24,000 bases of DNA, taken from positions 7,552 to 31,551 of the forward strand of contig DAITME010000010.1 in NCBI GenBank assembly GCA_036835305.1. Reading direction: 5' to 3'. This DNA is from Lewinella sp. (GTDB taxonomy: Bacteria; Bacteroidota; Bacteroidia; Chitinophagales; Saprospiraceae). Positions 3,001-24,000 of the stretch are shown here, in pieces (within the stretch, counting starts at the first letter, position 1; each line of letters opens with the position of its first letter). A model generated the notes under the pieces. The model was not told the DNA's origin. It did no database searches and saw nothing but the letters and a program-made list of their open reading frames with translations. The position numbers and the translations under genes are program-made.

Positions 3001-6000
3001 CAGGGGATCGGCTAAACAAGTCAAAGCTGTATCCACCAGGTTCATACAGGGCGGGCATGGAAGCTGCTCCACTCGTATGGAGAGTGAATTGGGGCAACCA
3101 TTTTGAAGATTCGTCACCGTAGCCGTATAAACGCCCGCCGCACCCAAAATAAGTGTAGCACTATCTCGGTTAGCTTGTATGCTCGGCCCTATCCAACTGT
3201 AGGCATAAGGCCTGTTTATTGGTGTAGCCAGCACCGTGAGCTGAAAACTGTCTTCGCGGCAGGGAATAAACTGATTAGACATCCGCAAGCTAGGAATGGC
3301 CACATCTCGGAAGATCGTCACCGCGTCCGTAGCGCTGCAGCCTGTTTCCTCGTTGGTGACTTGCAAAAAGTACAAGCCTGGCTGATTCACGCTTGTCACT
3401 TGTTGGGCGGCTAGTGTGTCGCTGGCTACATTCAACCAGCGATAGCTAAAACGGCTGTCTTGTTCAGAGGCGGCCGCGTCTAGTGTAATGATAGGTGCGT
3501 AACAATTAATAGTGTCGTTAGGCCCGGCATTAGCCACGGGAGGTACTAGGTTTCGCCGTACTGTTACGCTGGCTGTATCACGGATCCCCAGTCCTGCGCT
3601 GCTAATAACAAACGAATAATCACCAGGGCAAACCGTAAGGAGCTGCCGATCATTAGCGCCAGGTAAAATACAGGCCGGGTTTACATCGCTCAACCACTCG
3701 ATCGTGATACCGTCAGGATCGGCAGGAATACTAAAACTGGCATCCAACAGTATCTGCGAGCGCGCGCAAGTGAGGCTATCAGGCGGCACAATAATGGCTA
3801 AAAGTGGGCAATCAGCCACCACAGCGATGTTAGCTGTATCCACACAACTACCGTCGAAATTACTGATAATCAGCGTGTAAGTACCCGGTACATTCACGAT
3901 GGGGTTGGTGCCAATCAGATTTACCGCCTGGCCATCACGCAGCCAAGTTGTTCGGCTAGTAGGCGTACTCAGGGAGCGATCTATCGTGGCTAAGCCACTG
4001 GTGCAATCAATGAATGCCGTGTCTGGTAAAATGGCTACAACGGCGTTGTCTGCCAAAGACACTGTAATGCTGGAATCCGCCGTACAACCGTTATCAGTAT
4101 TCGTAAGTTGCAAGCGGTAGTCGCCAGGACAAAACACCCCGATAGCCGTGCTATCGCTATCGGCAGGCAAGCAGGGGCCAGACCAACTAAGACTGTAGTT
4201 GTAAAAAAGTGAAGTCGGGCGCGCATCCAAAAGCAACTCCTCTGCAAAGCAGCCGAAGGGTTCTACCGGAGCAAAGCGGATAAAAGGCGGTGTTTGATCT
4301 AGCAAAACACGAATACTATCCATTGCCCTACAGCCATTTTGCTGGTCAAATACGGAAAGAATATAGAATCCACCTGGCGGTTCTATATTTAAGAAGCGCT
4401 GCGTGCCCAGGGTGTCGTCAGGAGACCCCAGTAGCGTCCAGGCATAGCTAAAATTAGCCCCTTGGCTAGTGCTGTTATCTCCCAATGTGAGGGTGGGGTT
4501 GGTGCAAGTTAGGCTGGTGGTGTCAGGCCCTGCATCCACCACAGGGGGTGTTTGGTTACTCAGCACCGCCACGGCCAGAGAATCCCGGCAAAAATTGAGG
4601 GTGTCTTCTAAAAGCAAGCGGTAAAGATGGGCACTATCTACTAGCAAAGTAGGCAAATTGCCGAGTACATTCCCAGATTGATCTAGCCAGCGGTAGCGGA
4701 TTCGGTCGCCCGGACTGCTACTCCTTGCATCCAGTAGCTGGCTGGGTTCGTAGCAGCTAAGCGGATCGGGCACAGGAACAAGGGGCTGAGGCCCGGCCGT
4801 ATCTTGCTCGATCGTAAAAAGCTCGAAAGCTTCGCATCCATTCGTTTGATTGCGAACCAACAACTGATAAGTGCCGGCACAATCTAGGGTGAGGGCAGCA
4901 CCCGTAGCCGCCCCGGGCAAGCAAGCGCCAGACCAAGTGTATAGCAACTCATCGGCCCTGGCTTGCAGCGTATCTGCCTGGATGGTGAGGCTCGTGGCCG
5001 CACAATTCAAGACGGCCACACCCCTTGTGGTCGGCGATGGCCGCAAGGTATCCAGGCTTAGCTCCACACTGGCACTGTCGCGGCAGCCGGTTTCTTCGTT
5101 GATGATCCGCAGTTGATAGGTCCCCGGAGAGCCAACAGTGGTGGTTCGGGCATCGGTAGCCCCCAGAAATACCGCTGTGGGCGGCCCCGTCCATTGGTAA
5201 GAAAATTCATTGCCGCTACTACTATTTCCTCCCCCGAGCAAGGCGCTAAATTGTACGCAGCTGAGCGTATCACCACTACCGACGTCCACGCTCGGTAAGC
5301 TTTGGAAAGCAAGTATATGTACGCTATCTCGCACGGTACAGCTTTGACCTCGGTAGCTTTCCGTTAGTTCTGCGATGTATAAACCTGCCGTATCAACACT
5401 CAGTTGCTCTCCCGCACCTAGTAGGTTCCCTTGGCTATTGAACCAACGGACGCTGCGGCCAAACTGCGTGGCGGAGGGCGAAACATCCAAGGTCACAACG
5501 GGGGTATAGCAATTAATCACGGGCGTATCAGCAAAGACCAGTTGCGGCGCTAAAATCGCTAGATCCAAGGTAACAAAACTATCGCAGCCCACAGCGCTCA
5601 TCAAGGTGCGGCTGTAGATACCTGTGCTAGAGAATTGCTCAGTCCCTAGCTGAAAAAAATCACCCGCACAGCGTGCCACCGCTGTATCTATGGCAATACG
5701 GTCGCGAACCACTAGCTCCAGCGTAACGATGCTATCACAGCCCGCGGCTGCCGTCAGTGGCGTATCAAAAACCCCTGTTTGATCGTAATCTATGGTTCCC
5801 ACCCGGTAGGTATCGCCGAAGCAGATCGTATCGATCAGCCTTGTACGCAGGGTGCTGACGGCGGCGAGTTGTAGCTGCACTACGCTATCACACAATCCCC
5901 GTCCTAGCAGATCAACATGGTATAATCCACTTGTACTAAAACTTTGATTTCCCACCTGGTAGCTATCCCCCAAGCAAATCGTCTCGTCTATAAAGGTAGT

Positions 6001-6987: not shown

Positions 6988-6995
6988 CAAAGGTA
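6988..6995 (-). promoter_or_regulatory. Bacteroidota-type -7 promoter box (TACCTTTG on the minus strand) for the giant adhesin gene.
   Basis: The plus strand reads CAAAGGTA, which is TACCTTTG on the minus strand. It lies 33 nt upstream of the ATG at 6954 and matches the TAnnTTTG consensus described for Bacteroides/Flavobacterium sigma-A promoters. Confidence 0.4.
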
Positions 6996-12803: not shown

Positions 12804-14050
12804 TATACCTTTCTCCGATCTATTTCTTGGCGAATAAGCGATAGTTCTCGGCTCATGTCGCCGGTTACGGAGGTATTCTCTTGGGCGCGACGAATCAGGT
12901 AGGGTGTTACCTCTTTCACTGGGCCATACACCAAGTATTTCGCCACGTTGTAGCCACTGGCCGCCAGGTTGAAGGTGAGGTTGTCACTCATGCCATACAG
13001 CTGGCAAAAATTGAGGTGCTCGTGCTTTTTATCGAGCTGCTTTGCGGCAATGAGGTTCACCTGCAGCTCCACACTACTACGATTGTGGCTGGCATTGCAG
13101 CTAGCCATGGTTTCGTAGTGCGCTATGCAAAACTGTACGGCCTCATTGAAAGCCGCATGAGTAGCCCTTAGGTCGGGCTGAATCGGCGAAGGGTAGCCCA
13201 TTTCTTTGGCGCGCTGCCGTTCTTTATCCATGTAGGCACCTCTTACCAATTTAGCTCCCAATAAGTAGCCTTGTTGTTGGGCTTGTTCATAGCTAGCCAT
13301 CAAGTAGGCCAGCCGGTCGTGGCGATACATCTGAAAGGTATTGTAAACAATAGCCCGCGCGTTGTTGTAGCGCCGCATCATCACCGTGACCATCTGATCC
13401 AGTGTATCCTGTATCCAGCTTTCTTCCGCATCGAAAAATATCTTAACGCCCTTCTTATTCGCCAGAGAGCAAATAGCATCTAGGCGTTTCAAAACACTGT
13501 CGTATTCTTGACGCGTCTGCGGGGTAAAAACGAAATTCTGAGCCTGTAGTTCTTCTAACAAACCGAAGCGCGCCATACCAGATATTTTGGTACTAACCAC
13601 CGGCACCGCTTCGTTACGAGCGGCAAACTCAATTCCCCTGAGCACTTCCTTCATAGTCGCATTGAAATCTTGCTCCGTTTCCTTCGCCTCGGCACCATAA
13701 TCCAAGACCGAAGCAACACCTCGGCTCCACAAACGCTCAATGGCTGGTTCCGTAGCCACTAAGCTCGTGCCGCCTACAAACTGCGGATAAATAGTCTTCT
13801 TCACCATCCAAGCCGCCCCTGGCAAACCCCAAGCTACTGCCTTGAGTCCTACGCCTGCTAGCATATTCGTAAGCCAGGGCTTATTCATCAGGCCAAACAA
13901 ATAGGCACTCCGCTTCAGCTCCGCATCGCTCAGGTGGGAAAAAGTAGTGGCTGTATCGTCAAAATCTAAGCGCGGGTAATCTGCCCGCAGTGCCTCTAGA
14001 CCTACCTGTATTTGGGAAAAATCCTTTACTGGCCCAACGCTTTTTTTCAT
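12803..14050 (-). CDS. Proline dehydrogenase, monofunctional PutA-like, 415 aa.
   Basis: Supporting motifs are VLDYGAEAKE, GAKLVRGAYMDKER and CQLYGMSDNLTF...YLVYGPVKEVTPYLIRRAQENTS. Its ATG overlaps the aroE TGA (ATGA at 14047..14050). Confidence 0.88.
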   Translation of the reverse strand: MKKSVGPVKDFSQIQVGLEALRADYPRLDFDDTATTFSHLSDAELKRSAYLFGLMNKPWLTNMLAGVGLKAVAWGLPGAAWMVKKTIYPQFVGGTSLVATEPAIERLWSRGVASVLDYGAEAKETEQDFNATMKEVLRGIEFAARNEAVPVVSTKISGMARFGLLEELQAQNFVFTPQTRQEYDSVLKRLDAICSLANKKGVKIFFDAEESWIQDTLDQMVTVMMRRYNNARAIVYNTFQMYRHDRLAYLMASYEQAQQQGYLLGAKLVRGAYMDKERQRAKEMGYPSPIQPDLRATHAAFNEAVQFCIAHYETMASCNASHNRSSVELQVNLIAAKQLDKKHEHLNFCQLYGMSDNLTFNLAASGYNVAKYLVYGPVKEVTPYLIRRAQENTSVTGDMSRELSLIRQEIDRRKV

Positions 14051-14922
14051 TCTTTGGTGACTTTATTTGACTGCCAGATAGCCCAAGCAGCTTCGGCTTG
14101 TGCATATAACATCCCAAGACCGCTGCGGGTTGCTGCTCCTTGTGCTGCTGCTTGACGTAAAAATTCGGTTTGCGCCGGATTGTAGATTAGATCGTAGCAA
14201 CGGTGCTGAACCGTGAAAGCTTCGTAAGGCAGCGCCGGACTGTCTTCCAGCTGCGGATACATCCCCAGCGGCGTGGTGTTGACCACTAAACGATGCGCTG
14301 CCAGCACGGCTGCCGTCACCTCCTCGTAGGACAATTGCCCAGCTTGAGGCCGCCGCGAAACCAGCTTCGCTTCTATACCCAAGCGCTGCAAAACATAATT
14401 TACTGCCAGCGCAGCCCCACCTGTCCCCAAAACCAATGCCTGAAGCCCCTGAAAATTGGAAACATCTAGGCTAGTTCCCGCAGGGCTTGTATTGTCACTT
14501 TGGCTGTCGCAGGAGCCGTGTTTTCCTTTTAGAGCCATGCGCTTTTGTAGCTCCCCCGGCCCCAAAGGCCAAACCTCCCCCAATAACTCTAGTAAATCGG
14601 TCTCAAATCCCAGCGCATCCGTATTGTATCCGATTGTTTGGCCTTGCTTTATATGGATGGTATTGACTGCCCCGATGGCCTTGGCTTCGGGTGAAAGTGC
14701 ATCCAGATAAGCCATCACCGACTGCTTGTGCGGGATGGTTACATTCAAGCCCACCAAATCGGGGTGGGTCTCCAGTATGGCTCGGAAATGAGCTATGTCC
14801 ACTAGTTCAAAATTGAGATAACGGTAGCTTTCACTCAGCCCTAGGCGCTCGAATTTATCCGTAAAATACGGCCGCGAAAAACTATGCGATAGTGGGTAAC
14901 CAATGAGGCCAAAAGTGGGCAT
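14047..14922 (-). CDS. aroE: Shikimate 5-dehydrogenase, 291 aa, with an internal low-complexity insertion.
   Basis: Supporting motifs are FGLIGYPLSHSFSRPYF, NVTIPHKQ, GAVNTI, GYNTD and VLGTGGAA (the NADP-binding loop). Confidence 0.88.
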   Translation of the reverse strand: MPTFGLIGYPLSHSFSRPYFTDKFERLGLSESYRYLNFELVDIAHFRAILETHPDLVGLNVTIPHKQSVMAYLDALSPEAKAIGAVNTIHIKQGQTIGYNTDALGFETDLLELLGEVWPLGPGELQKRMALKGKHGSCDSQSDNTSPAGTSLDVSNFQGLQALVLGTGGAALAVNYVLQRLGIEAKLVSRRPQAGQLSYEEVTAAVLAAHRLVVNTTPLGMYPQLEDSPALPYEAFTVQHRCYDLIYNPAQTEFLRQAAAQGAATRSGLGMLYAQAEAAWAIWQSNKVTKE

Positions 14923-14944
14923 GTGTCTGCTTGTTGTATCGAGG

Positions 14945-14952
14945 TAAAGGTA
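14945..14952 (-). promoter_or_regulatory. Near-consensus -7 box (TACCTTTA on the minus strand) upstream of the aroE/proline dehydrogenase operon.
   Basis: The plus strand reads TAAAGGTA, 22 nt upstream of the aroE ATG at 14922. It has one mismatch to TAnnTTTG. Confidence 0.3.
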
Positions 14953-15028
14953 GCAGAATAATCAAAAAAAGTACGATAATGAAGTTAAAAAACTCTCTTT
15001 ACGTCAAATAGGCTTCAATATTTCGCTT

Positions 15029-16402
15029 ATGATCACTTACATAAAAGTAACCGGCTTCAAATCTTTTCACGAGATGGAGATGGAGTTCAGTCCATTCACC
15101 CTCATCGCTGGCGTGAATGCTTCTGGTAAAAGTAATCTATTCGATGCACTACAATTACTTGGCCGACTTGCCGTAACTGACAATATAAGAAGCGCTTTTT
15201 CCGAGCAACGAGGAGAATTCCTCGAACTCTTCACACAATATGGTGTCAATGAATATGCCAAGGAAATGTCTTTTGCTTTAGAAATGCTCGTGCCTAGAAC
15301 CGTCAAAGACGCCTAGGGAAGCAAGGCCAATCTTAAATATACCCGCCTACGATATGAACTTCGTATCAAGAGAAGCAGCAGTTCTAATGGATTCGAAGAG
15401 CTTTTTGTAACCCACGAGTCGCTGGTTAACTTGAAGCACAACGAAGATCAATGGATAAAAAAAATTGACAAAAAACTACGTGAATACTGGCGGCCAAGCG
15501 TTGCCATTGGGCGGCGAGGTGTTCCCTATATGGAAACAACCGAGGAAAATGGTATTCCTACCGTTATTGTACCACAAGACGGGTCGGGAGGAGGCAAAAA
15601 AAGGTTTCCACTCACGAACGCCAGCAGAACCGTATTAAGTAGTTTCGACTCTGTTGACTTTCCTCATCTGTTAGCGGTAAAAGAAGAACTGAAAAACTGG
15701 AAATTCCTTCAACTCAACCCAGATGACTTGAGGAAACCTAGCAAAAAAGATGGCCACGACAACATTTCACAAAGTGGCCAATACCTCGCTGCGGCACTTC
15801 AAAGAATAAAACGGCAGAACCCTTACATTTTGAGAGAAATAAGCAGAAAACTCAATAGTTTTTTGCCTAATTTCATCGACGTCGATGTCGTTGATGAAAC
15901 AGAAAACCGGCAGTACCTTATCAGGCTTCAAGACGTTGATGGTAAATATTATTCCTCGAGAGTACTATCTGAGGGTACCCTAAGGATTTTGTCTCTGTGT
16001 ATCCTCAAACATGATCCTTTTCACAACGGCCTTTTGTGTTTTGAAGAACCTGAAAATGGAATCCACCCCTTTCGTATTGAGGCTATGGCCAAGCTTTTAG
16101 AAGATTTAAGCACACAATTTGAAGATAAGGACGAGCCATTGAGACAGGTCATTGTAAATACTCATTCCCCCCTTTTGCTGCAAGTTATCCATTCATGGGT
16201 TAACAAAGACAAGCTTGGTATTTAGCTGTCGGACATACGCAAAAGGGTATTAGATTATGAGGGAAAACGAGTAAAAATGGCGGCGACTAGCATAATTCCT
16301 ATCGATACTGGTCCAACACAATTACCCTTGTTTAGCGAGCAGGATAAAAAAATGAGCATCGCCACCGCCCAAAAAGTTCTGAGTACCGCTAATCTTAATT
16401 AA
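15029..16402 (+). pseudogene. SMC/RecF-like ABC ATPase (AAA_15/AAA_21-type) of 457 codons, interrupted by two in-frame TAG codons at 15314..15316 and 16223..16225.
   Basis: The Walker A motif is GVNASGKSN (15110..15136). A signature-like LSEGTLR starts at 15965, Walker B LLCFEEPENGIHP starts at 16031, and VIVNTHSP is the H-loop. ORFs 15029..15316 and 15431..16225 and the unlisted tail to the TAA at 16400..16402 are all in one frame. The stretches between them translate sensibly (GSKANLKYTRLRYELRIKR...; LSDIRKRVLDYEGKRV...). Confidence 0.75.
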
Positions 16403-16416
16403 ACCCAAACAAAGCT

Positions 16417-17082
16417 ATGCAGCAATTTTTTGTTGGATTGTACACAGAGGGTACTACCGACGTCAGATTTTTAGAGGCTATAGTTAGAAAAACATTGGAG
16501 GAGGTGGCGTTTAAATGCCGAAAGCCGATAGAAATAGAAGTCATTCCCCTTCAAAAGAGGCTAGACGAACGGGATTTCATCTCGAGTATTGAGGTAATAG
16601 CCAGATTAGCTTACGCAAGTGGTGCCAATTTCCTCTGCTTACACCTCGATGCTGATGCTTCCGACCATGAAGTCGTTTTCAATCGCAAGATAAACCCTTT
16701 GATTAATCACATGAAAACTATATCCGGTGCTGATATCTGTAATAACATTCTACCCCTTGTTCTAGTACAAATGACAGAAGCATGGATGCTAGCTGATCTC
16801 TCTTTACTGAAGGAAGAAATTGGTACGCAGTTAAGCGACAAGCAGCTAGGTTTATTGAGAGCAGCTGAAAGTATTGCAGATCCTAAACAAACGATCCAAG
16901 AAGCCATACGAACCGCACGTGCTAACCTAAGTAAAAGGCGACGGAGAAGTCTTAGTATCGGAGATCTATATGAGCCAATAGGTAATCGAATATCTATTGA
17001 CAAGCTTGAACAATTAGCCTCCTATCGGAAATTCAAAGGTTTCGTTGAAGATGGTTTTCGCGAAATGGGCTTACTTCCCTAG
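16417..17082 (+). CDS. DUF4276-like (Toprim-related) protein, 221 aa, partner of the upstream ABC ATPase.
   Basis: It starts 14 nt after the ATPase TAA. It has an N-terminal GLYTEGTTDVRFLE (conserved Glu), LHLDADAS (DxD) and QMTEAWMLADL. I recognise this as the E...DxD...EaWllaD pattern of PF14103. This comes from memory, not from a search. Confidence 0.6.
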   Translation: MQQFFVGLYTEGTTDVRFLEAIVRKTLEEVAFKCRKPIEIEVIPLQKRLDERDFISSIEVIARLAYASGANFLCLHLDADASDHEVVFNRKINPLINHMKTISGADICNNILPLVLVQMTEAWMLADLSLLKEEIGTQLSDKQLGLLRAAESIADPKQTIQEAIRTARANLSKRRRRSLSIGDLYEPIGNRISIDKLEQLASYRKFKGFVEDGFREMGLLP

Positions 17083-17161
17083 CTCGAAACAAATAGAAAT
17101 CTCCACCATTGACCTTCAAGACTCAGATCAATTTGTAACAACAACCTAAATTAAGACATCA

Positions 17162-17202
17162 AGTAATACAAAAGCTTGTCAATAAAGCTTTTATGTATTA
17201 CT
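17162..17202 (+). terminator. AT-rich hairpin downstream of the DUF4276-like gene. It may be a terminator and lies near the right edge of the island.
   Basis: AGTAATACA (17162..17170) pairs with TGTATTACT (17194..17202). AAAGCTT (17171..17177) pairs with AAGCTTT (17185..17191). There is a 2-nt bulge (17192..17193) and a 7-nt loop, and no clear U-tract follows. Confidence 0.35.
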
Positions 17203-17224
17203 CATCCTTACAAATTCTTAAGTT

Positions 17225-19429
17225 ATGCGACACTTCTTCCTCTGTATCTATCTAGGGCTAGCGCTTTCAGTACTACATGCCGATCCTATTGATTACGCCC
17301 CGAATGTTGATTGGGCCTCTTTCCGAGATATCAGTGGCACGACCTACAGCCAGCTCTTTACCCAGTATAGTAACGATGGTTATATGCTGATAGATATAGA
17401 TGCCTACACCATCGGTAACAACCAGCGCTATGCCATGGTGTGGCGAAAAAACACCGACAATCGCAATTGGGTTGCGCATCGGGATCTCAGCTCTCAGACA
17501 TACAACGATCTGTGGACGCAATACCGAGAAACGGGCTACCGCCCTGTTGACATAGAAGCCTATACCACCAACCAAGGTTTACGTTTTGCGGGTATTTGGG
17601 TGGAAAACACCGAATCGCTCGCTTGGTCTTCCCGCAGAAATATGACGAGCGATTCTTACGCCGACTATTTTGTGGAGCAAAGTGGGCTGGGAAGAAGGGT
17701 GGTAGATTTGGAAATTTACCCAACCGATGCGGGGCTGAGATATGCGGCTATTTGGCAAACCAACCCCAATAATGCGGGCTGGGCGGCCTTCCGCGAAATG
17801 ACCCGCAGCAGCTACCAGGAGAAGGTAGATGAACTTAGCGCTCAAGGACTTTGGGTGGTCGACTACGAAGCCTATGATACCCCCAACGGAATAAGATATG
17901 CCGCCATCTGGGAGCCTCGCCCCAGCGGAAAAGCCATACAAGTGCGCACCAACCGTACCGAATTGGACTTTGCCAATCTGTGGCGACAATACAGAGACGA
18001 AGGCTACCGCTTGCTGGATTTTGAGCGCAACGATACACCTAATGGGCCCAGATACAGTGGTATTTGGATAGAAAACTACGATCGCTTCCGCTACCCCTTG
18101 AAAACGCAAATAGATAATAGTATCACCCAATACCTACAGGCAAATAATCTACCTGGTATATCGGTAGCCGTGGTGGTGGACGGGCAGACAGTTTATCGTC
18201 GTGGCTTTGGCTTCGCAGATGTGGAGGCGGGCAAAGTGGCTCACAGCCGAAGTGTGTACAATACCGCCTCGGTATCAAAAGTAGTAGGCGGCACGCTAGC
18301 AGCTAAATTAGAAGCCAACGGCCAGCTACAAAACGGCACGCCGATCCAGCTTGACCTGAGTAATCCAAGTAGTAATTACCTAAATAACCTACCCAGCAAC
18401 CACAATCATCAGGTAGATGAGTTATTAGCGCATCTTGGTTGTATTCCACACTACAATACCTCGCCCGGTATTGCCAACCAAACTACCCACTACAGCAGTG
18501 CCACCGCCGCAGCCTCCTCCGTTTGGGGAAGTTTACTCAACACTTGTAATACAGGTACTACTCGTAGCTATTCTACCCATGCCTTTACCCTAGTGGGAGC
18601 TGTTTTAGAGCAGGTGAGCGGTAGAAATATTAGTCAGCTCCTCCAGGACGAGATAGCCACTCCATATAGACTAAACTCATTGCGTGCCCAATTTGCACAG
18701 AGCACCCTCCCCAATAACTACGAGCGTGCCGTACCTTACCGAGATAACAACACGGCAACCTCCTACAGCAACAGTAGCTGGAAAGTGCTTGGCGGCGGCA
18801 TAGAGATGGATGTAACCGATCTGGCTCGCTTCGGTTGGCAAACCCTAAGCGGACAGATTGTTTCCCCAGCCGTTAGAGACGAGCGCCTATGGGCAGCCGT
18901 CCGCGACAACTGTGGAGATAACGTAAACGGGAATTGCCAGAACGGACTCGCCTGGCGAAGAGGAATTGCCAACGGGAGGAGGTTCGTTGAACATGGTGGC
19001 GAATGGACGGGAGCCAGATCTCATCTACGTATCTATCGCGACAATAGTTTGGTCATAGCGGTTCTCTCCAACAGAAGCAACCATAGTCCTGTCAATTTGG
19101 TTAGCAGCATCGGCAACATCATCCTGCCCTTCACCACACACACGGAGGAGATCGCCAACGCATCGACTGATAGTTATCTACTACAGCAAAACTCCCCCAA
19201 TCCCGCTAGCCACACGACCAACATAGCTTACCGCGTTCCGAGTAGCCAATTTGTAAGACTTAGCCTTCGGGATATGAGCGGCCGGGTTCTCCTTACGCCC
19301 GTACAGCAACAGCAAGCTGTAGGCGAATATACCATCGCCCTTCCTTTGGATCGCCTTCCTGCTGGCATCTATGTGTACACACTTCAGCTTGGCCAGCAAC
19401 TGTATAGCAAGCGCTTGGTGGTTCAGTGA
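17225..19429 (+). CDS. Secreted serine hydrolase, 734 aa. Domain order is signal peptide, five tandem repeats of about 52 aa, a class C beta-lactamase/PBP-fold domain, then a T9SS type A C-terminal sorting domain.
   Basis: The SxxK motif is SVSK at 18269..18280, within NTASVSKVVGGTLAAKL. YSN and HGG motifs lie downstream. The C-terminal 84 aa (19175..19426, SPNPASHTTNIAYRVP...GIYVYTLQLGQQLYSKRLVVQ) match the Por_Secre_tail pattern. Confidence 0.85.
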   Translation: MRHFFLCIYLGLALSVLHADPIDYAPNVDWASFRDISGTTYSQLFTQYSNDGYMLIDIDAYTIGNNQRYAMVWRKNTDNRNWVAHRDLSSQTYNDLWTQYRETGYRPVDIEAYTTNQGLRFAGIWVENTESLAWSSRRNMTSDSYADYFVEQSGLGRRVVDLEIYPTDAGLRYAAIWQTNPNNAGWAAFREMTRSSYQEKVDELSAQGLWVVDYEAYDTPNGIRYAAIWEPRPSGKAIQVRTNRTELDFANLWRQYRDEGYRLLDFERNDTPNGPRYSGIWIENYDRFRYPLKTQIDNSITQYLQANNLPGISVAVVVDGQTVYRRGFGFADVEAGKVAHSRSVYNTASVSKVVGGTLAAKLEANGQLQNGTPIQLDLSNPSSNYLNNLPSNHNHQVDELLAHLGCIPHYNTSPGIANQTTHYSSATAAASSVWGSLLNTCNTGTTRSYSTHAFTLVGAVLEQVSGRNISQLLQDEIATPYRLNSLRAQFAQSTLPNNYERAVPYRDNNTATSYSNSSWKVLGGGIEMDVTDLARFGWQTLSGQIVSPAVRDERLWAAVRDNCGDNVNGNCQNGLAWRRGIANGRRFVEHGGEWTGARSHLRIYRDNSLVIAVLSNRSNHSPVNLVSSIGNIILPFTTHTEEIANASTDSYLLQQNSPNPASHTTNIAYRVPSSQFVRLSLRDMSGRVLLTPVQQQQAVGEYTIALPLDRLPAGIYVYTLQLGQQLYSKRLVVQ
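17309..18088 (+). repeat. Five tandem protein repeats of about 52 aa, each W..(F/H/R)R(D/N/E)(I/L/M)(S/T)...Y.......GY...D.E.Y......RYA.IW..N.
   Basis: The repeat units start at DWASFRDISG, NWVAHRDLSS, AWSSRRNMTS, GWAAFREMTR and AIQVRTNRTE. I recognise the pattern as the bacterial tandem repeat (BTRD1 / polyglycine-hydrolase-like structural repeat) that commonly precedes beta-lactamase-fold domains. Confidence 0.65.
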
Positions 19430-19456
19430 CCTCTGTTTTGCCTACAAAAAGAAGCG

Positions 19457-21244
19457 CTAGAAGCGAACCACCAATGGCAAACGAGCCTGCACACCCTGCG
19501 CCTGAGACATATCGCGCAGCAAACGGTAATGCTGGAAGTACTCCTCGCCTAGTTCTTGGCGGAGGACACGATCGGAAAGCCGGACATCATCGTCGCCCCC
19601 CATCCCTAACAAGTCTTCGACAAAGCGCTCCAGGGCTGGTTTTACCCCGGGGTAAAGCTTCGTTTGGTAATCTCCTCCCAAGCCAGCTAAATCGGCCGCA
19701 GCCAATATGGCTTGGTTGAGATCGCCCAATTCATCCACCAGCCCTAATTCGAGAGCGTCGTTGCCGGAATATACGCGGCCACCAGCTATTTCCTCCACAC
19801 GCTTGATAGGCATCTTACGGCCGTCGGCTACGCGCTGCATGAACTGCTGATAGACGTAGCCCGAACGGGTCGTAAGTACCGCTCGCTGCTCTGGGGTAAT
19901 ATCTTGAAAGGGGCTAAGCGCTGTTGAGTTCCGAGCAGTGTTTACCGTGTCAAAGTTGATGCCGATCTTATCATTCATCAATTCTTTCAATATTGGGAAG
20001 GTGGTAAAAACACCGATAGAACCCGTGATGGTAGTAGGCTCTGCGATAATCTTGTTCGCAGCAGCAGCGATATAATAGCCTCCGCTAGCCGCATAGTCGC
20101 CCATACTCACCACTACCGGTTTACCGGCTTCCTTTAAGCGCTCCACGGCGTACCAGATGTTCTCGGAGCTACTCGCGCTACCACCGCCGCTATTGACACG
20201 AAGCACAACGGCTTTCACGTCTTTATCTTCCGTAAGCTTATCTATCTCTTTAACGTATTTTTTATCGCCAATGCTACCAGCTTCTCCTTTACCATCTACG
20301 ATGCTGCCTTCGGCGATTAAGACTGCAATTTCTTGCTTACCACCTTTAAGGGCCTGCAGGCGCGCGCGGAAATAATCATCCACACTCATACTTACTAGAG
20401 GTTTGTCGTAGTCCAGCCCTACCTGATCGTGCAGCAGCCGATCCATCTCCGTTTGCGTGAGGATGCCATCCACGAGGCCATCTGTCATGGCAGCCTCGTC
20501 TTTCCAGCCAGCCATCTCATCAGCTGCCTGCCGTAGTTTAGCGGGGCTGATGCCTCTGGTGCTGCTAATGTCTGCTAGCATCGTGGCGAAAAGATCTTCT
20601 AGGAAAATTTTAGTTTGTTCTCGATTTTCCGCGCTCATCTCCGAACGCAGGAATGGTTCGACCGCACTTTTGTAGTCGCCCACTTTAAAGACTTCCATCT
20701 TGATTCCTGCTTTGTCGAGTACATTCTTGAAATAGGGTACTTCCGCTCCTAAACCTCGGAAATCGACAATCCCCAAGGGGCCTAGATAGACCTTATCGGC
20801 CGTACTAGCTAGGTAATAGCCCGACTGCTCGTAGAAAGGAGCGTAGGCCAGCACAAACTTACCGCTCTCCTTGAACTTGAGTACTGCACTCCGCAAAGCT
20901 CGGCTGCTAGTGAGTGGCGCTGGTACACTTGCGTTGCGCAGATACAGTCCTTTTATATTGTCATCCTTAGCCGCTTCTTCCAGGGCTCGGATGAGATCGT
21001 GTAGGCCAATGACTTCTTTGTTTTCAAAGTCGAAGCCCGTCATGGCTATATTGCCCGTCAGTTCCGGAAGCCCCTTTCCCATATCAAAATACAGAATGGT
21101 ATTAGCACTGACCACTGGCTTATTCTCGCCAGCTATGTTTCCAGCTTTGGAGGCAAAGAAAGAAATTAAAATAATCGGAATCATCACCAGGGCAATTAAG
21201 CTGCCCAAACAAGACCCCAACACAATTTTCAGAAAACGACTCAT
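19457..21244 (-). CDS. sppA: Signal peptide peptidase SppA, 67K type (protease IV), 595 aa.
   Basis: It has an N-terminal TM helix (IVLGSCLGSLIALVMIPIILISFF) and duplicated ClpP-like halves. The catalytic-region motifs are VNSGGGSASSSE, MGDYAASGGYYIAAAANKI and TGSIGV. Confidence 0.9.
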   Translation of the reverse strand: MSRFLKIVLGSCLGSLIALVMIPIILISFFASKAGNIAGENKPVVSANTILYFDMGKGLPELTGNIAMTGFDFENKEVIGLHDLIRALEEAAKDDNIKGLYLRNASVPAPLTSSRALRSAVLKFKESGKFVLAYAPFYEQSGYYLASTADKVYLGPLGIVDFRGLGAEVPYFKNVLDKAGIKMEVFKVGDYKSAVEPFLRSEMSAENREQTKIFLEDLFATMLADISSTRGISPAKLRQAADEMAGWKDEAAMTDGLVDGILTQTEMDRLLHDQVGLDYDKPLVSMSVDDYFRARLQALKGGKQEIAVLIAEGSIVDGKGEAGSIGDKKYVKEIDKLTEDKDVKAVVLRVNSGGGSASSSENIWYAVERLKEAGKPVVVSMGDYAASGGYYIAAAANKIIAEPTTITGSIGVFTTFPILKELMNDKIGINFDTVNTARNSTALSPFQDITPEQRAVLTTRSGYVYQQFMQRVADGRKMPIKRVEEIAGGRVYSGNDALELGLVDELGDLNQAILAAADLAGLGGDYQTKLYPGVKPALERFVEDLLGMGGDDDVRLSDRVLRQELGEEYFQHYRLLRDMSQAQGVQARLPLVVRF

Positions 21245-21836
21245 AAGATATTTTTATATTGACCTTCCCCCGGCATCCGATCAAGATAAAGACCCGACGA
21301 AGGTTGGCTTTAAAACATGGCTCTTAAAAAAAACACAACTCCCGCATTTATGCCCGCCCCTATACGGACGCGGTGGGCGAGAGACAGCGACTACACACTA
21401 GATTCGTACAAATGCAACATCCGTATGAGCACACACCCAGTATCTCTTCTTGCCACAACTAGAAACAAAATACGTTGCCCTTTGGTCGGCAAAGAAACCC
21501 AGAAAAGAAGGTTTACTCGCTAATAATCGATCAAAGACCTAAAATTATGGCTCAAAGATCGAAAAAAATCGACCACCCCTTGTTATTTTGTTTCCCTTGC
21601 TGTATATTGCAGTCTCTTTGGGTACCTTTTGTTGATACTGAAAGGCTCACCCACTACGATTTTTCGGCCTTTCCCGCTTTTTAGCCGAGTACAGGGACCG
21701 CAGCGCCTTAGTATCTGTGGTTCTTTCAGCAACTACTCTCCAACTCTTGCGATCTTACGACGACCTGAGCGCACGCTTCGTCGGGTAAGTTTTCTTGCCT
21801 GGCATCATTTTTTATGTCGAATTACCGCAACCGCAT

Positions 21837-24000
21837 ATGTCCAAGAGATTAGAGCTTACTTACCTACTATTGGCTTTCGTTGTTTACCTCCCTGCCCAAA
21901 CAATGGAAGTGATCAATGAAGCCCCCTACACGCCGCAAGAGCTAATTGAGAATGTCTTCCTGGGGGAAGGCGTACAGCTTTTGGGCGTGCAATACGATGG
22001 CGACCCACGCTCGGCGGCCTACTTCAAAGGCGGGCAGCAAGCCGTGGGCATAGAGCGGGGAATTGTGATGACCACCGGTGTGAGCGTCACGGACGGCAAC
22101 ATTTACGGCGTGCATGAAAACGGCAGCCGGCAAGCTAGCCGCGATGTCGATAGCCCGCTCACTAACGATCCCGACCTACGCAATATCGTGGGTGCAGGCG
22201 TGAATCTCAATGATATTACACGCTATACCATTACCTTCCGACCACTCTCGGATACCATTAGCTTTCGTTATGTTTTTGCCTCCGAGGAATACCCTGAGTA
22301 CGTCTGCTCTCAGTTCAATGATGTCTTTGGCTTCTTCATGAGCGGCCCGGGTATCGTAGGCACAATCAACTTGGCACAAATCCCGAATGCCAACCTCCCC
22401 GTCAGTATTAATAGCGTAAACAGCGGAATGCCCGGCAGCAATGCCAATGGAGGCACTTGCAGTGGCAGCCAGGAATCTTTGGCCTTCAACCAATATTACC
22501 GCAACAACAACGGCTCCAACAACCAGCCTGTTTTTGATGGTATTTCTACTGTTTTCACGGCTACCATGCCCGTGCAAGCCTGCCAGACCTACACCATCAA
22601 ACTCGTGATTGCCGATGTGGGTGATAGCGCCTTCGACTCGGGTGTTTTCCTAGAAGCCCGCAGCTTTGGCGGAACGGCTACCAACCTCAACATCGTTAAT
22701 TTGGCTATCGACGGCACCCTTCGCGAAGGCTGCCAGGGTGCGGAACTACACTTCTATACCCTACAGCCCGTGGAAGAAGACCTGCCGCTTGAAGTCAGCA
22801 TCTTCGGCAACGCTACCCCAGGTGTGGACTATACCACCCTCCCCTCGGAGTTTATCATCCCTGCCGGCGACAGCCTACTGGTTGTTCCCGTTTCGGCTTT
22901 TCCAGATGATATCGACGACGATGGCGAGCTCATCCGCATATCGCTGCGCCGAAGTCCCTGTTTAGTCGATACTTTTGATATCCGCATCGAGCAAAGCCGC
23001 ATCGGCACGGCCTCCCTCACCGATCAGGTAATTATCTGTGGCGGTGAAACGGTACAACTCGATGGCACCCTCAGCAACAGTGAGCCGGAACGCTTCACTT
23101 TCACACGCAGCGAGGATGTTGTATTTGGCCGCCTTTTCACACCTGCCACCTTCACTTCCACCATCAACATCAATGGTTTCGTGCCTAACGCACTTTCGGA
23201 TGGCATCATCCAATCGGTCTGCATCAATGATCTGGAAAACAACCGTGTGCGACAAATATCGGCTTTCCTCATAGCACCCAATGGTGCCCAACTGGAACTC
23301 AGCAGTCGCAATGGCGGCACCGTCAACAACGCCCCCTTCTCGGGCTACCAAAATACTTGTTTTAGCCCCACGGCCACCAACCGCATTGCGCTACCCGGCC
23401 AGGAAGCCCCTGCCACACAGCTCCCCTTCAGCGGCAACTGGCTACCAGAAGGCGACTTCAACGAACTCTACTTCAACAACCCTATCACCAATGGTGCCTG
23501 GCAACTACAACTCATCGACAATGCCCCCCTCACCGATAGAACCCGCTTTGGCGACTGGTCCATCACGCTAGAACGCCCCTATCAAGTCTTCTACCAATGG
23601 CAGGAAGAGGCCTTGCTATCTTGCTACGACTGCCCCAACCCTGTGCTTACTGCCGAGCAACCCGGCTTTGTTTACATGACCGCCACCGATAGCTATGGTT
23701 GCGAAATTCGCGACAGTGTAGAAGTGGTCTTCCCGCCCAATAGCTTTCTGGAGGGCGTTAGTTGTGGCGTAGCTACCGACTCCACCCTTTCCATCAGCTG
23801 GAATACCAATGTGGATGCCCTTTTCTACGAAGTAAGTACTAGTGATCGGAACTGGATAGAGGTAGGCACGGCTACGAGCTTCACCTTTCAAGGGCTGCAA
23901 TTTGACAGCACCTACACCTTCTTCGTGCGCGGTATTTTTGCAGACTGCATTGGTCCAGTTCAGCGCGTAAGTTGCACCACCCTCCCCTGCCTCACGCCGC
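21837..24000 (+). CDS. Large secreted protein, 3'-truncated by the window end, with 721 aa visible. Domain order is signal peptide, choice-of-anchor L domain, Calx-beta-like domain, proprotein-convertase P-domain, then an FN3-like domain.
   Basis: It is not in the ORF track because no stop falls within the window. I translated it by hand from the ATG at 21837 and found it open to 24000. Choice-of-anchor L motifs (about 21909..22670) are NVFLGEGV, GIVMTTG, SEEYPEYVCSQFNDVFGFFMSG and KLVIADVGDSAFDSGVFLEARSF. The P-domain (about 23124..23576) shows ISAFLIAPNGAQLEL...GAWQLQLIDN...FGDWSITLE. The listed minus-strand ORFs between 21942 and 23900 are antisense artefacts. Confidence 0.85.
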   Translation, partial: MSKRLELTYLLLAFVVYLPAQTMEVINEAPYTPQELIENVFLGEGVQLLGVQYDGDPRSAAYFKGGQQAVGIERGIVMTTGVSVTDGNIYGVHENGSRQASRDVDSPLTNDPDLRNIVGAGVNLNDITRYTITFRPLSDTISFRYVFASEEYPEYVCSQFNDVFGFFMSGPGIVGTINLAQIPNANLPVSINSVNSGMPGSNANGGTCSGSQESLAFNQYYRNNNGSNNQPVFDGISTVFTATMPVQACQTYTIKLVIADVGDSAFDSGVFLEARSFGGTATNLNIVNLAIDGTLREGCQGAELHFYTLQPVEEDLPLEVSIFGNATPGVDYTTLPSEFIIPAGDSLLVVPVSAFPDDIDDDGELIRISLRRSPCLVDTFDIRIEQSRIGTASLTDQVIICGGETVQLDGTLSNSEPERFTFTRSEDVVFGRLFTPATFTSTININGFVPNALSDGIIQSVCINDLENNRVRQISAFLIAPNGAQLELSSRNGGTVNNAPFSGYQNTCFSPTATNRIALPGQEAPATQLPFSGNWLPEGDFNELYFNNPITNGAWQLQLIDNAPLTDRTRFGDWSITLERPYQVFYQWQEEALLSCYDCPNPVLTAEQPGFVYMTATDSYGCEIRDSVEVVFPPNSFLEGVSCGVATDSTLSISWNTNVDALFYEVSTSDRNWIEVGTATSFTFQGLQFDSTYTFFVRGIFADCIGPVQRVSCTTLPCLTP

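Follow-up and report, generated by a model that had tools for sequence, protein, structure and literature searches.

The closest described relative of the locus analysed here is HEC-01 (Hma-embedded candidate 01), a candidate defence system made up of an ATP-binding cassette (ABC) ATPase and a TOPRIM-like partner; the partner, HEC-01B, shares the metal-binding site of BpOLD (Payne et al., bioRxiv 10.1101/2024.01.29.577857). In another study, E. coli carrying a HEC-01 representative was protected from one or more of the phages T4, T5 and T7 (10.1101/2024.09.26.614923). DUF4276, the domain of the partner, is assigned to the Toprim superfamily and constitutes both Mad4 of MADS and the C-terminal effector domain of Menshen NsnC (PMC12065111). 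It is also found among the AAA15/21 partners in the PARIS phylogeny (PMC11464382). The locus described here occupies positions 14923-17224 of a 24-kb stretch of Lewinella sp. DNA (contig DAITME010000010.1; this whole stretch is referred to as the window) and consists of an ABC ATPase gene followed by a DUF4276 gene. Judged by its profile matches, it belongs to the candidate defence system catalogued in PADLOC as HEC-01 (ABC ATPase plus Toprim-like DUF4276). It is very probably a horizontally acquired HEC-01-type cassette in which the ATPase was recently inactivated by two TGG to TAG changes. A preliminary description of this DNA had proposed a split ABC ATPase and DUF4276 pair of OLD/PARIS-like design, which holds at the level of design. 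Its view that no system based on DUF4276 had been characterised is out of date: HEC-01 has been tested, and MADS and Menshen use DUF4276.

The ATPase frame (15029-16402, plus strand; 458 codons) runs from the ATG at 15029 to the TAA at 16400-16402 and includes two amber codons, which are discussed below. With the stop codons masked as X, its translation matches the PADLOC profile HEC-01A (PDLC04184; E-value: 2.3e-137), with residues 1-454 aligned to profile positions 1-460 of 464, and the Pfam domains AAA_21, AAA_15, SMC_N, AAA_23 and AAA_29. The motifs of an SMC/RecF-like ABC ATPase occur in order, all of them in this frame, as had been read from the sequence previously: a Walker A motif or P-loop (GVNASGKSN, residues 28-36, 15110-15136; G28 and N30-N36 are invariant in the alignment), an ABC signature-like motif (LSEGTLR, residues 313-319, 15965-15985), a Walker B motif (LLCFEEPE, residues 335-342, 16031-16054) and an H-loop or switch histidine (NTHSP, residues 377-381, 16157-16171), the last three being invariant in the alignment. 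The N-terminal part of the protein weakly matches SMC, RecF, Rad50 and OLD structures. An AlphaFold2 (AF2) model of the ATPase, based on 13 sequences, had a pLDDT of 44.6 and was unusable, and no fold search was made on it. ATPase homologues were found at 60-82% identity. Those of Flavobacterium, Sphingobacterium, Thermoflexibacter and Ca. Thiomargarita are approximately 60-63% identical to the ATPase, while the corresponding values for the DUF4276 partner are approximately 41-50%; conservation across phyla is therefore much greater for the ATPase than for DUF4276, the opposite of what would be expected for a fast-evolving ATPase sensor.

The second gene (gene 2) is intact. Its open reading frame (ORF; 16417-17082, plus strand) begins 14 nt past the final TAA of the ATPase frame, on the same strand, and encodes the 221-aa protein that had been claimed at this distance, a predicted Toprim-like metal-dependent nuclease. 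Gene 2 matches the PADLOC profile HEC-01B (PDLC04212; E-value: 2.1e-53), with residues 1-220 aligned to profile positions 1-221 of 222; the only other PADLOC matches are to two PDC models. In Pfam, it matches DUF4276 (PF14103; E-value: 1e-6) with 29.6 bits, 0.6 bit under the gathering score of 30.2. The same domain is matched by all 37 aligned family members (best E-value: 2e-10) and is given by precomputed annotation for most gene 2 homologues. The proposed check of both proteins against PADLOC and Pfam was borne out, as they match HEC-01A and HEC-01B over their full length and the ATPase matches AAA_21 and AAA_15. At this locus the genes that match the A and B profiles are adjacent and co-oriented; they are not both intact.

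The acidic constellation that had been noted in gene 2 was confirmed by alignment. E11 (in TEG; codon 16447-16449), D78 and D80 (in LDADAS; codons 16648-16650 and 16654-16656) and E121 (in TEAWMLAD; codon 16777-16779) are invariant in 37 homologues, the invariant motifs being E11-G12-x-T14-D15, D78-x-D80 and E121. The acidic motifs of P2 Old read VEGKTE and ADCD, compared with TEGTTD and DADAS in gene 2. In the AF2 model of gene 2 (pLDDT 93.2), the core is arranged beta-alpha-beta-alpha-beta-alpha-beta, and the strands at residues 2-10 and 72-77 directly precede the Glu and the DxD, so that the Glu follows strand 1 and the DxD follows strand 3. This is the canonical Toprim order. The predicted assignment of gene 2 to the Toprim proteins draws on this motif topology and on the published structural comparisons.

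The two genes are conserved as neighbours, a point that had been put forward as a check. The DUF4276 profile retrieved 80 metagenome loci. Of these, 64 have at least 600 bp of upstream sequence, and every one of the 64 has the ATPase immediately upstream in the same orientation (64/64). The closest ATPase and DUF4276 homologues share contigs, and the ATPase is also directly upstream in the loci L004 and L085-L089. In the Thermoflexibacter, Ca. Vecturithrix, Spirosoma and Arcicella loci it is immediately upstream, either overlapping gene 2 or at most 4 nt away; among the five relatives examined, four (L085, L087, L088 and L089) have reading frames that overlap or are 4 nt apart. Where both genes are intact, they make up an operon. 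In L087 (6597-13379) and L088 (3663-13594), a type III-like N6_N4 methyltransferase gene and a ResIII/RE_endonuc gene immediately flank the pair; L088 is a Spirosoma locus and also has an SNF2 helicase upstream. In L170, a methyltransferase gene and a Res gene are found within 1-1.5 kb on either side of the pair, and in Arcicella (L089, 5769-11661) the pair is located between thrA and thrB.

Comparison with the described systems places the locus closest to HEC-01, with which it shares the two-gene order, the orientation, the close spacing and full-length profile matches. It differs in that the local ATPase is a pseudogene and in that the cassette stands alone beside aroE, not within an Hma or restriction-modification (RM) system; the representatives that have been tested experimentally are other family members, with mixed results. 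MADS (methylation-associated defence system), as summarised in PMC12065111, likewise combines an AAA_15/21-type ATPase with a DUF4276 partner (Mad3 and Mad4; Maestri et al. 2024). The local ATPase matches PADLOC mad3 (E-value: 7.7e-26) and NCBIfam MAD3 (E-value: 1.3e-49), but the MAD3 score of 169.5 bits is far under the cutoff of 420, and no methyltransferase or other mad genes are present in the window. PARIS resembles the locus in being a split ATPase and Toprim-like effector, and its AriA model matches the ATPase (E-value: 1.7e-27) at the level of a generic AAA_21 protein; gene 2, however, has no match to AriB or DUF4435 at E-values up to 0.1 to 1. Phages or satellites are the usual carriers of PARIS, whereas a search of IMG/VR found no gene 2 relatives. 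The likeness to OLD and GajA lies in the Walker A region of the ATPase, which resembles those of OLD, SMC and RecF, and in the E...DxD acidic constellation of gene 2. Unlike the two genes found here, OLD and GajA are single fused polypeptides; the Old and GajA models match only the ends of the ATPase, and gene 2 does not match the OLD-like_TOPRIM domain (PF20469). AbiL consists of the ATPase AbiLi and the RloB-like AbiLii. Menshen and AbiL also combine AAA_15/21 ATPases with small Toprim-superfamily effectors, and the NsnB and AbiLi models weakly match the ATPase, but these matches are much weaker than those to HEC-01, and neither an NsnA/NsnC architecture nor an RloB match was found. The profiles place the pair outside PARIS, OLD and Gabija.

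The ATPase gene is not intact, a point that the reasoning of the preliminary description leaves out. In-frame TAG codons at codon 96 (15314-15316, plus strand) and codon 399 (16223-16225, plus strand) split the frame into ORFs of 95, 264 and 41 aa. Both positions are occupied by Trp in 12/12 aligned homologues; among the metagenome homologues, 53 of 58 have Trp at codon 96, whereas at codon 399 Trp is found in 47 of 72 and His in 19. In the ortholog of a closer relative (L004, a metagenome contig), both codons are TGG, and therefore both lesions are TGG-to-TAG transitions, each replacing Trp with a stop. Read from its frame, the ATPase is locally a pseudogene. No in-frame stops occur in 57 full-length ATPase homologues from the metagenome loci (0/57), and decay of either cassette partner is rare. 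A single one of the 80 metagenome DUF4276 homologues (L124, 31-684) has an in-frame stop, and no ATPase homologue is interrupted. Reassignment or suppression of the stop codon was considered and rejected: four further window genes, gene 2 among them, end in TAG, and the window contains no tRNA gene. The sequence context of the first nonsense change (15310-15317, CCTGG to CCTAG) is as expected from deamination of 5-methylcytosine on the opposite strand at a Dcm-type CCWGG site. A Dcm-type hotspot is nevertheless unsupported, as CCWGG is undepleted in the window (46 sites observed compared with 50 expected).

Near-clonal contigs reveal the state of the two stops in the population. L001 (run SRR3311151) is identical to the window, both stops included. 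L002 (run SRR3311156) and L003 differ from the window at 3-4 sites per 8-10 kb, and in both a G in place of A at 16224 restores Trp399 (TGG, as in L004); the codon-96 stop is retained in L002. The codon-96 stop is present in every sampled contig that covers codon 96, and the codon-399 stop is segregating. Assembly error was rejected as a source of the stops since the same alleles recur in independent assemblies. Across 13625-24000 of the window, the comparison with L002 and L003 yields six single-base differences, all of them transitions (14135, 16224, 17136, 21306, 21640 and 23051), of which one (16224) is the ATPase nonsense allele.

Inactivation of the ATPase is recent. This follows from the dN/dS of 0.045 between the window and L004, from the lack of any rate acceleration (the distance to outgroups is no greater for the window protein than for the intact ortholog), from the preservation of all catalytic motifs and from the A/G polymorphism at 16224. 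The frame is otherwise kept, with no frameshifts. Translation would stop at codon 96, far short of residues 313-381, where the signature, Walker B and H-loop motifs lie, and a restart downstream of this codon (TTG at 15431) would lack Walker A, so that the system should be inactive. The cassette in this genome is most likely non-functional, with only the DUF4276 gene intact, and the upstream stop might impose transcriptional polarity on gene 2.

The cassette is of foreign origin. It lies between the start of aroE (14047-14922, minus strand) and a gene for a 734-aa secreted hydrolase (17225-19429). The guanine plus cytosine (GC) content of the insert (14923-17224) is 0.409, while the mean over other 2.3-kb windows of the 24-kb sequence is 0.516 (standard deviation 0.014, minimum 0.484); the insert is approximately 7 standard deviations under the remainder. 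The low GC content relative to the flanks that had been estimated from single lines of sequence is borne out by these values. The compositional anomaly is genuine, and its edges are intergenic boundaries. As had been noted before, no integrase is present; neither integrase, transposase nor tRNA genes were found in the 24-kb window, an Rfam search of the region gave no matches, and no convincing direct or inverted repeats that could represent att sites or border repeats were found at the insert edges.

The comparison of the aroE interval with related genomes, which had been suggested earlier, was carried out by scanning for proline dehydrogenase (ProDH). The aroE-ProDH pair is kept in all 80 Saprospiraceae/Lewinellaceae loci examined, and, as far as their upstream sequence extends, none of the 80 has the cassette beside aroE. 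The closest species representative (Lewinella sp. L005, 86% ProDH identity) has a tetratricopeptide repeat (TPR) gene upstream of aroE. An exact empty site is undefinable because the 80 relatives do not share synteny beyond aroE and none of them has sppA nearby. By contrast, L004 carries the intact ortholog pair at the same aroE-proximal position. Amino-acid identity between L004 and the window is 91% for ProDH, 73% for aroE, 91% for SppA, 82% for the ATPase and 71% for DUF4276, and both the pair and its flanks are saturated at synonymous sites. The GC content of the L004 pair is 0.42, compared with 0.48-0.50 in its flanks. The cassette is not a recent insertion because an ortholog pair with a divergence similar to that of the flanking genes occupies the same site in L004. 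It was acquired horizontally by an ancestor of the small clade comprising the window and L004 lineages and has since been inherited vertically, with its foreign composition kept.

The mechanism proposed for intact cassettes, by analogy with OLD, Gabija and PARIS, can be outlined as follows. The ATPase would detect a trigger and control the effector, the DUF4276 protein, which would act as an Mg2+/Mn2+-dependent Toprim-like nuclease and cut nucleic acid using E11, D78, D80 and E121. This cleavage would presumably stop either the invader or the infected cell. A role in defence, the nuclease chemistry and this division of labour between the two proteins are each inferred.

Several results weigh against reading the locus as the remnant of such a nuclease-based defence cassette. 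The HEC-01 representative that Payne et al. (10.1101/2024.01.29.577857) tested in E. coli gave no defence against the phages used. In 20 distinct metagenome loci, housekeeping genes predominate among the two genes closest to the pair on either side, with only a few defence neighbours (type III methyltransferase, PtuA, PDC-S01 and PDC-M02B), and no relatives were found in IMG/VR viral contigs. Gene 2 itself is intact and may have a residual or altered function. With respect to the fold, a Foldseek search of the gene 2 model against PDB and BFVD returned non-significant, unrelated matches and no Toprim proteins, a profile search of PDB sequences with gene 2 was empty, and alignment of gene 2 with P2 Old by hhalign had a probability of 0.2%; attempts at an OLD-Toprim alignment gave too few sequences. 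The Toprim-like character that the preliminary description gave to the DUF4276 protein is backed by the motif order and the literature; the fold and profile searches failed to recover Toprim.

The first two of these results bear on whether the cassette family is primarily anti-phage at all. It might instead be a selfish addiction or toxin-antitoxin-like element, or an accessory to RM or DNA repair, that spread selfishly and then decayed here. Such a role would fit a pair that is often alone amid housekeeping genes without mobility genes (thrA and thrB in L089, aroE here), the methyltransferase and ResIII/RE_endonuc genes that surround it in L087, L088 and L170, the mostly non-defence neighbourhoods and the absence of defence reported by Payne et al. 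It is nonetheless unlikely: one HEC-01 representative did give protection from one or more of T4, T5 and T7, embedding in RM and Hma systems is the very defence-association signal by which HEC-01 was discovered, and the related ATPase and DUF4276 pairs of MADS and Menshen belong to defence systems. The population could also be in the course of silencing an autoimmunity-prone cassette, with successive Trp-to-amber changes selected on account of a costly ATPase and the intact, motif-complete DUF4276 nuclease retained for an ATPase-independent function, either as an orphan effector or re-wired to another sensor. This is quite improbable; if it were true, the ATPase, and not the nuclease, would be the liability in HEC-01.

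The two stops could be interpreted in other ways as well. A system that is still functional, whether by amber readthrough or suppression or with an ATPase made as fragments (an N-terminal piece of 95 aa plus a 264/323-aa piece restarting at TTG 15431), would explain why the ATPase frame is otherwise preserved, without frameshifts and with all motifs intact, why the DUF4276 gene is intact and why an ORF that starts at a TTG follows the first stop. Against this, TAG is the ordinary terminator of four other window genes and no suppressor tRNA is encoded in the window; the first stop separates Walker A from the signature and Walker B, a split seen in none of 57 homologues; and relaxed constraint would be expected to give rise to a new polymorphism such as the second stop. 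Continued function is accordingly very unlikely. Sequencing or assembly artefacts in a gene that is intact in the organism are hardly credible. Both stops are indeed single-base G-to-A differences from the expected TGG, but the first is shared by the window, L001 and L002, which were assembled independently from different runs (SRR3311151 and SRR3311156 for the latter two), and the second, which the window and L001 share while L002 and L003 lack it, behaves like a real allele. A horizontally acquired HEC-01-type cassette with a recently inactivated ATPase is the explanation preferred here.

The locus matters little beyond annotation, where it adds a Lewinellaceae example to a candidate defence family in PADLOC. 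It is an ordinary decaying example of a published family, and HEC-01 itself is already known. The locus does provide a dated decay series, from the intact ortholog to one stop and then to two stops, and shows that such cassettes can stay at a single chromosomal position over long periods before point mutations lead to their loss. The mechanism of HEC-01 (its trigger, its target and whether DUF4276 acts as a DNase or an RNase) is worth study in an intact ortholog such as that of L004.

The intergenic region between the divergent aroE and ATPase genes (14923-15028, given on the plus strand) holds a block that is conserved with L004. This block, at 14985-15003 of the window and approximately 2612-2633 of L004, reads AAAAAACT[C/A]TCTTTACGTCA. 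In L004 it contains TATCTTTA, which has one mismatch to the Bacteroidota -7 box TAnnTTTG; the window counterpart reads TCTCTTTA, with two mismatches. The conserved block may be the promoter of the cassette, and the window promoter may be degenerating as well. TAnnTTTG boxes had been described upstream of most native genes but not of the ATPase. There is indeed no exact copy upstream of the ATPase on the plus strand, but the motif is no commoner in the window than chance predicts (14 copies observed compared with 14.6 expected from shuffles); as it is not enriched, its absence upstream of the ATPase is weak evidence. Several copies are located close upstream of gene starts, including those at 6988 (minus strand), 8697 (plus strand), 11852 (minus strand) and 12265 (plus strand).

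Downstream of gene 2, an AT-rich hairpin with a 16-bp perfect stem (17162-17202, plus strand) precedes the hydrolase gene. The 142-nt spacer in which it lies folds at -21.1 kcal/mol (z = -3.3), and the hairpin may act as a terminator without a U-tract. The hydrolase gene that follows encodes 734 aa with BTRD1, beta-lactamase and type IX secretion system (T9SS)-tail regions, and its GC content of 0.51 is native. It is absent from L004 (compared with window 17083-19456), in which sppA directly follows the DUF4276 gene, the two convergent genes overlapping by 4 nt (4754-4757). The hydrolase gene is thus, besides the cassette, a presence/absence difference between the window and L004 lineages.

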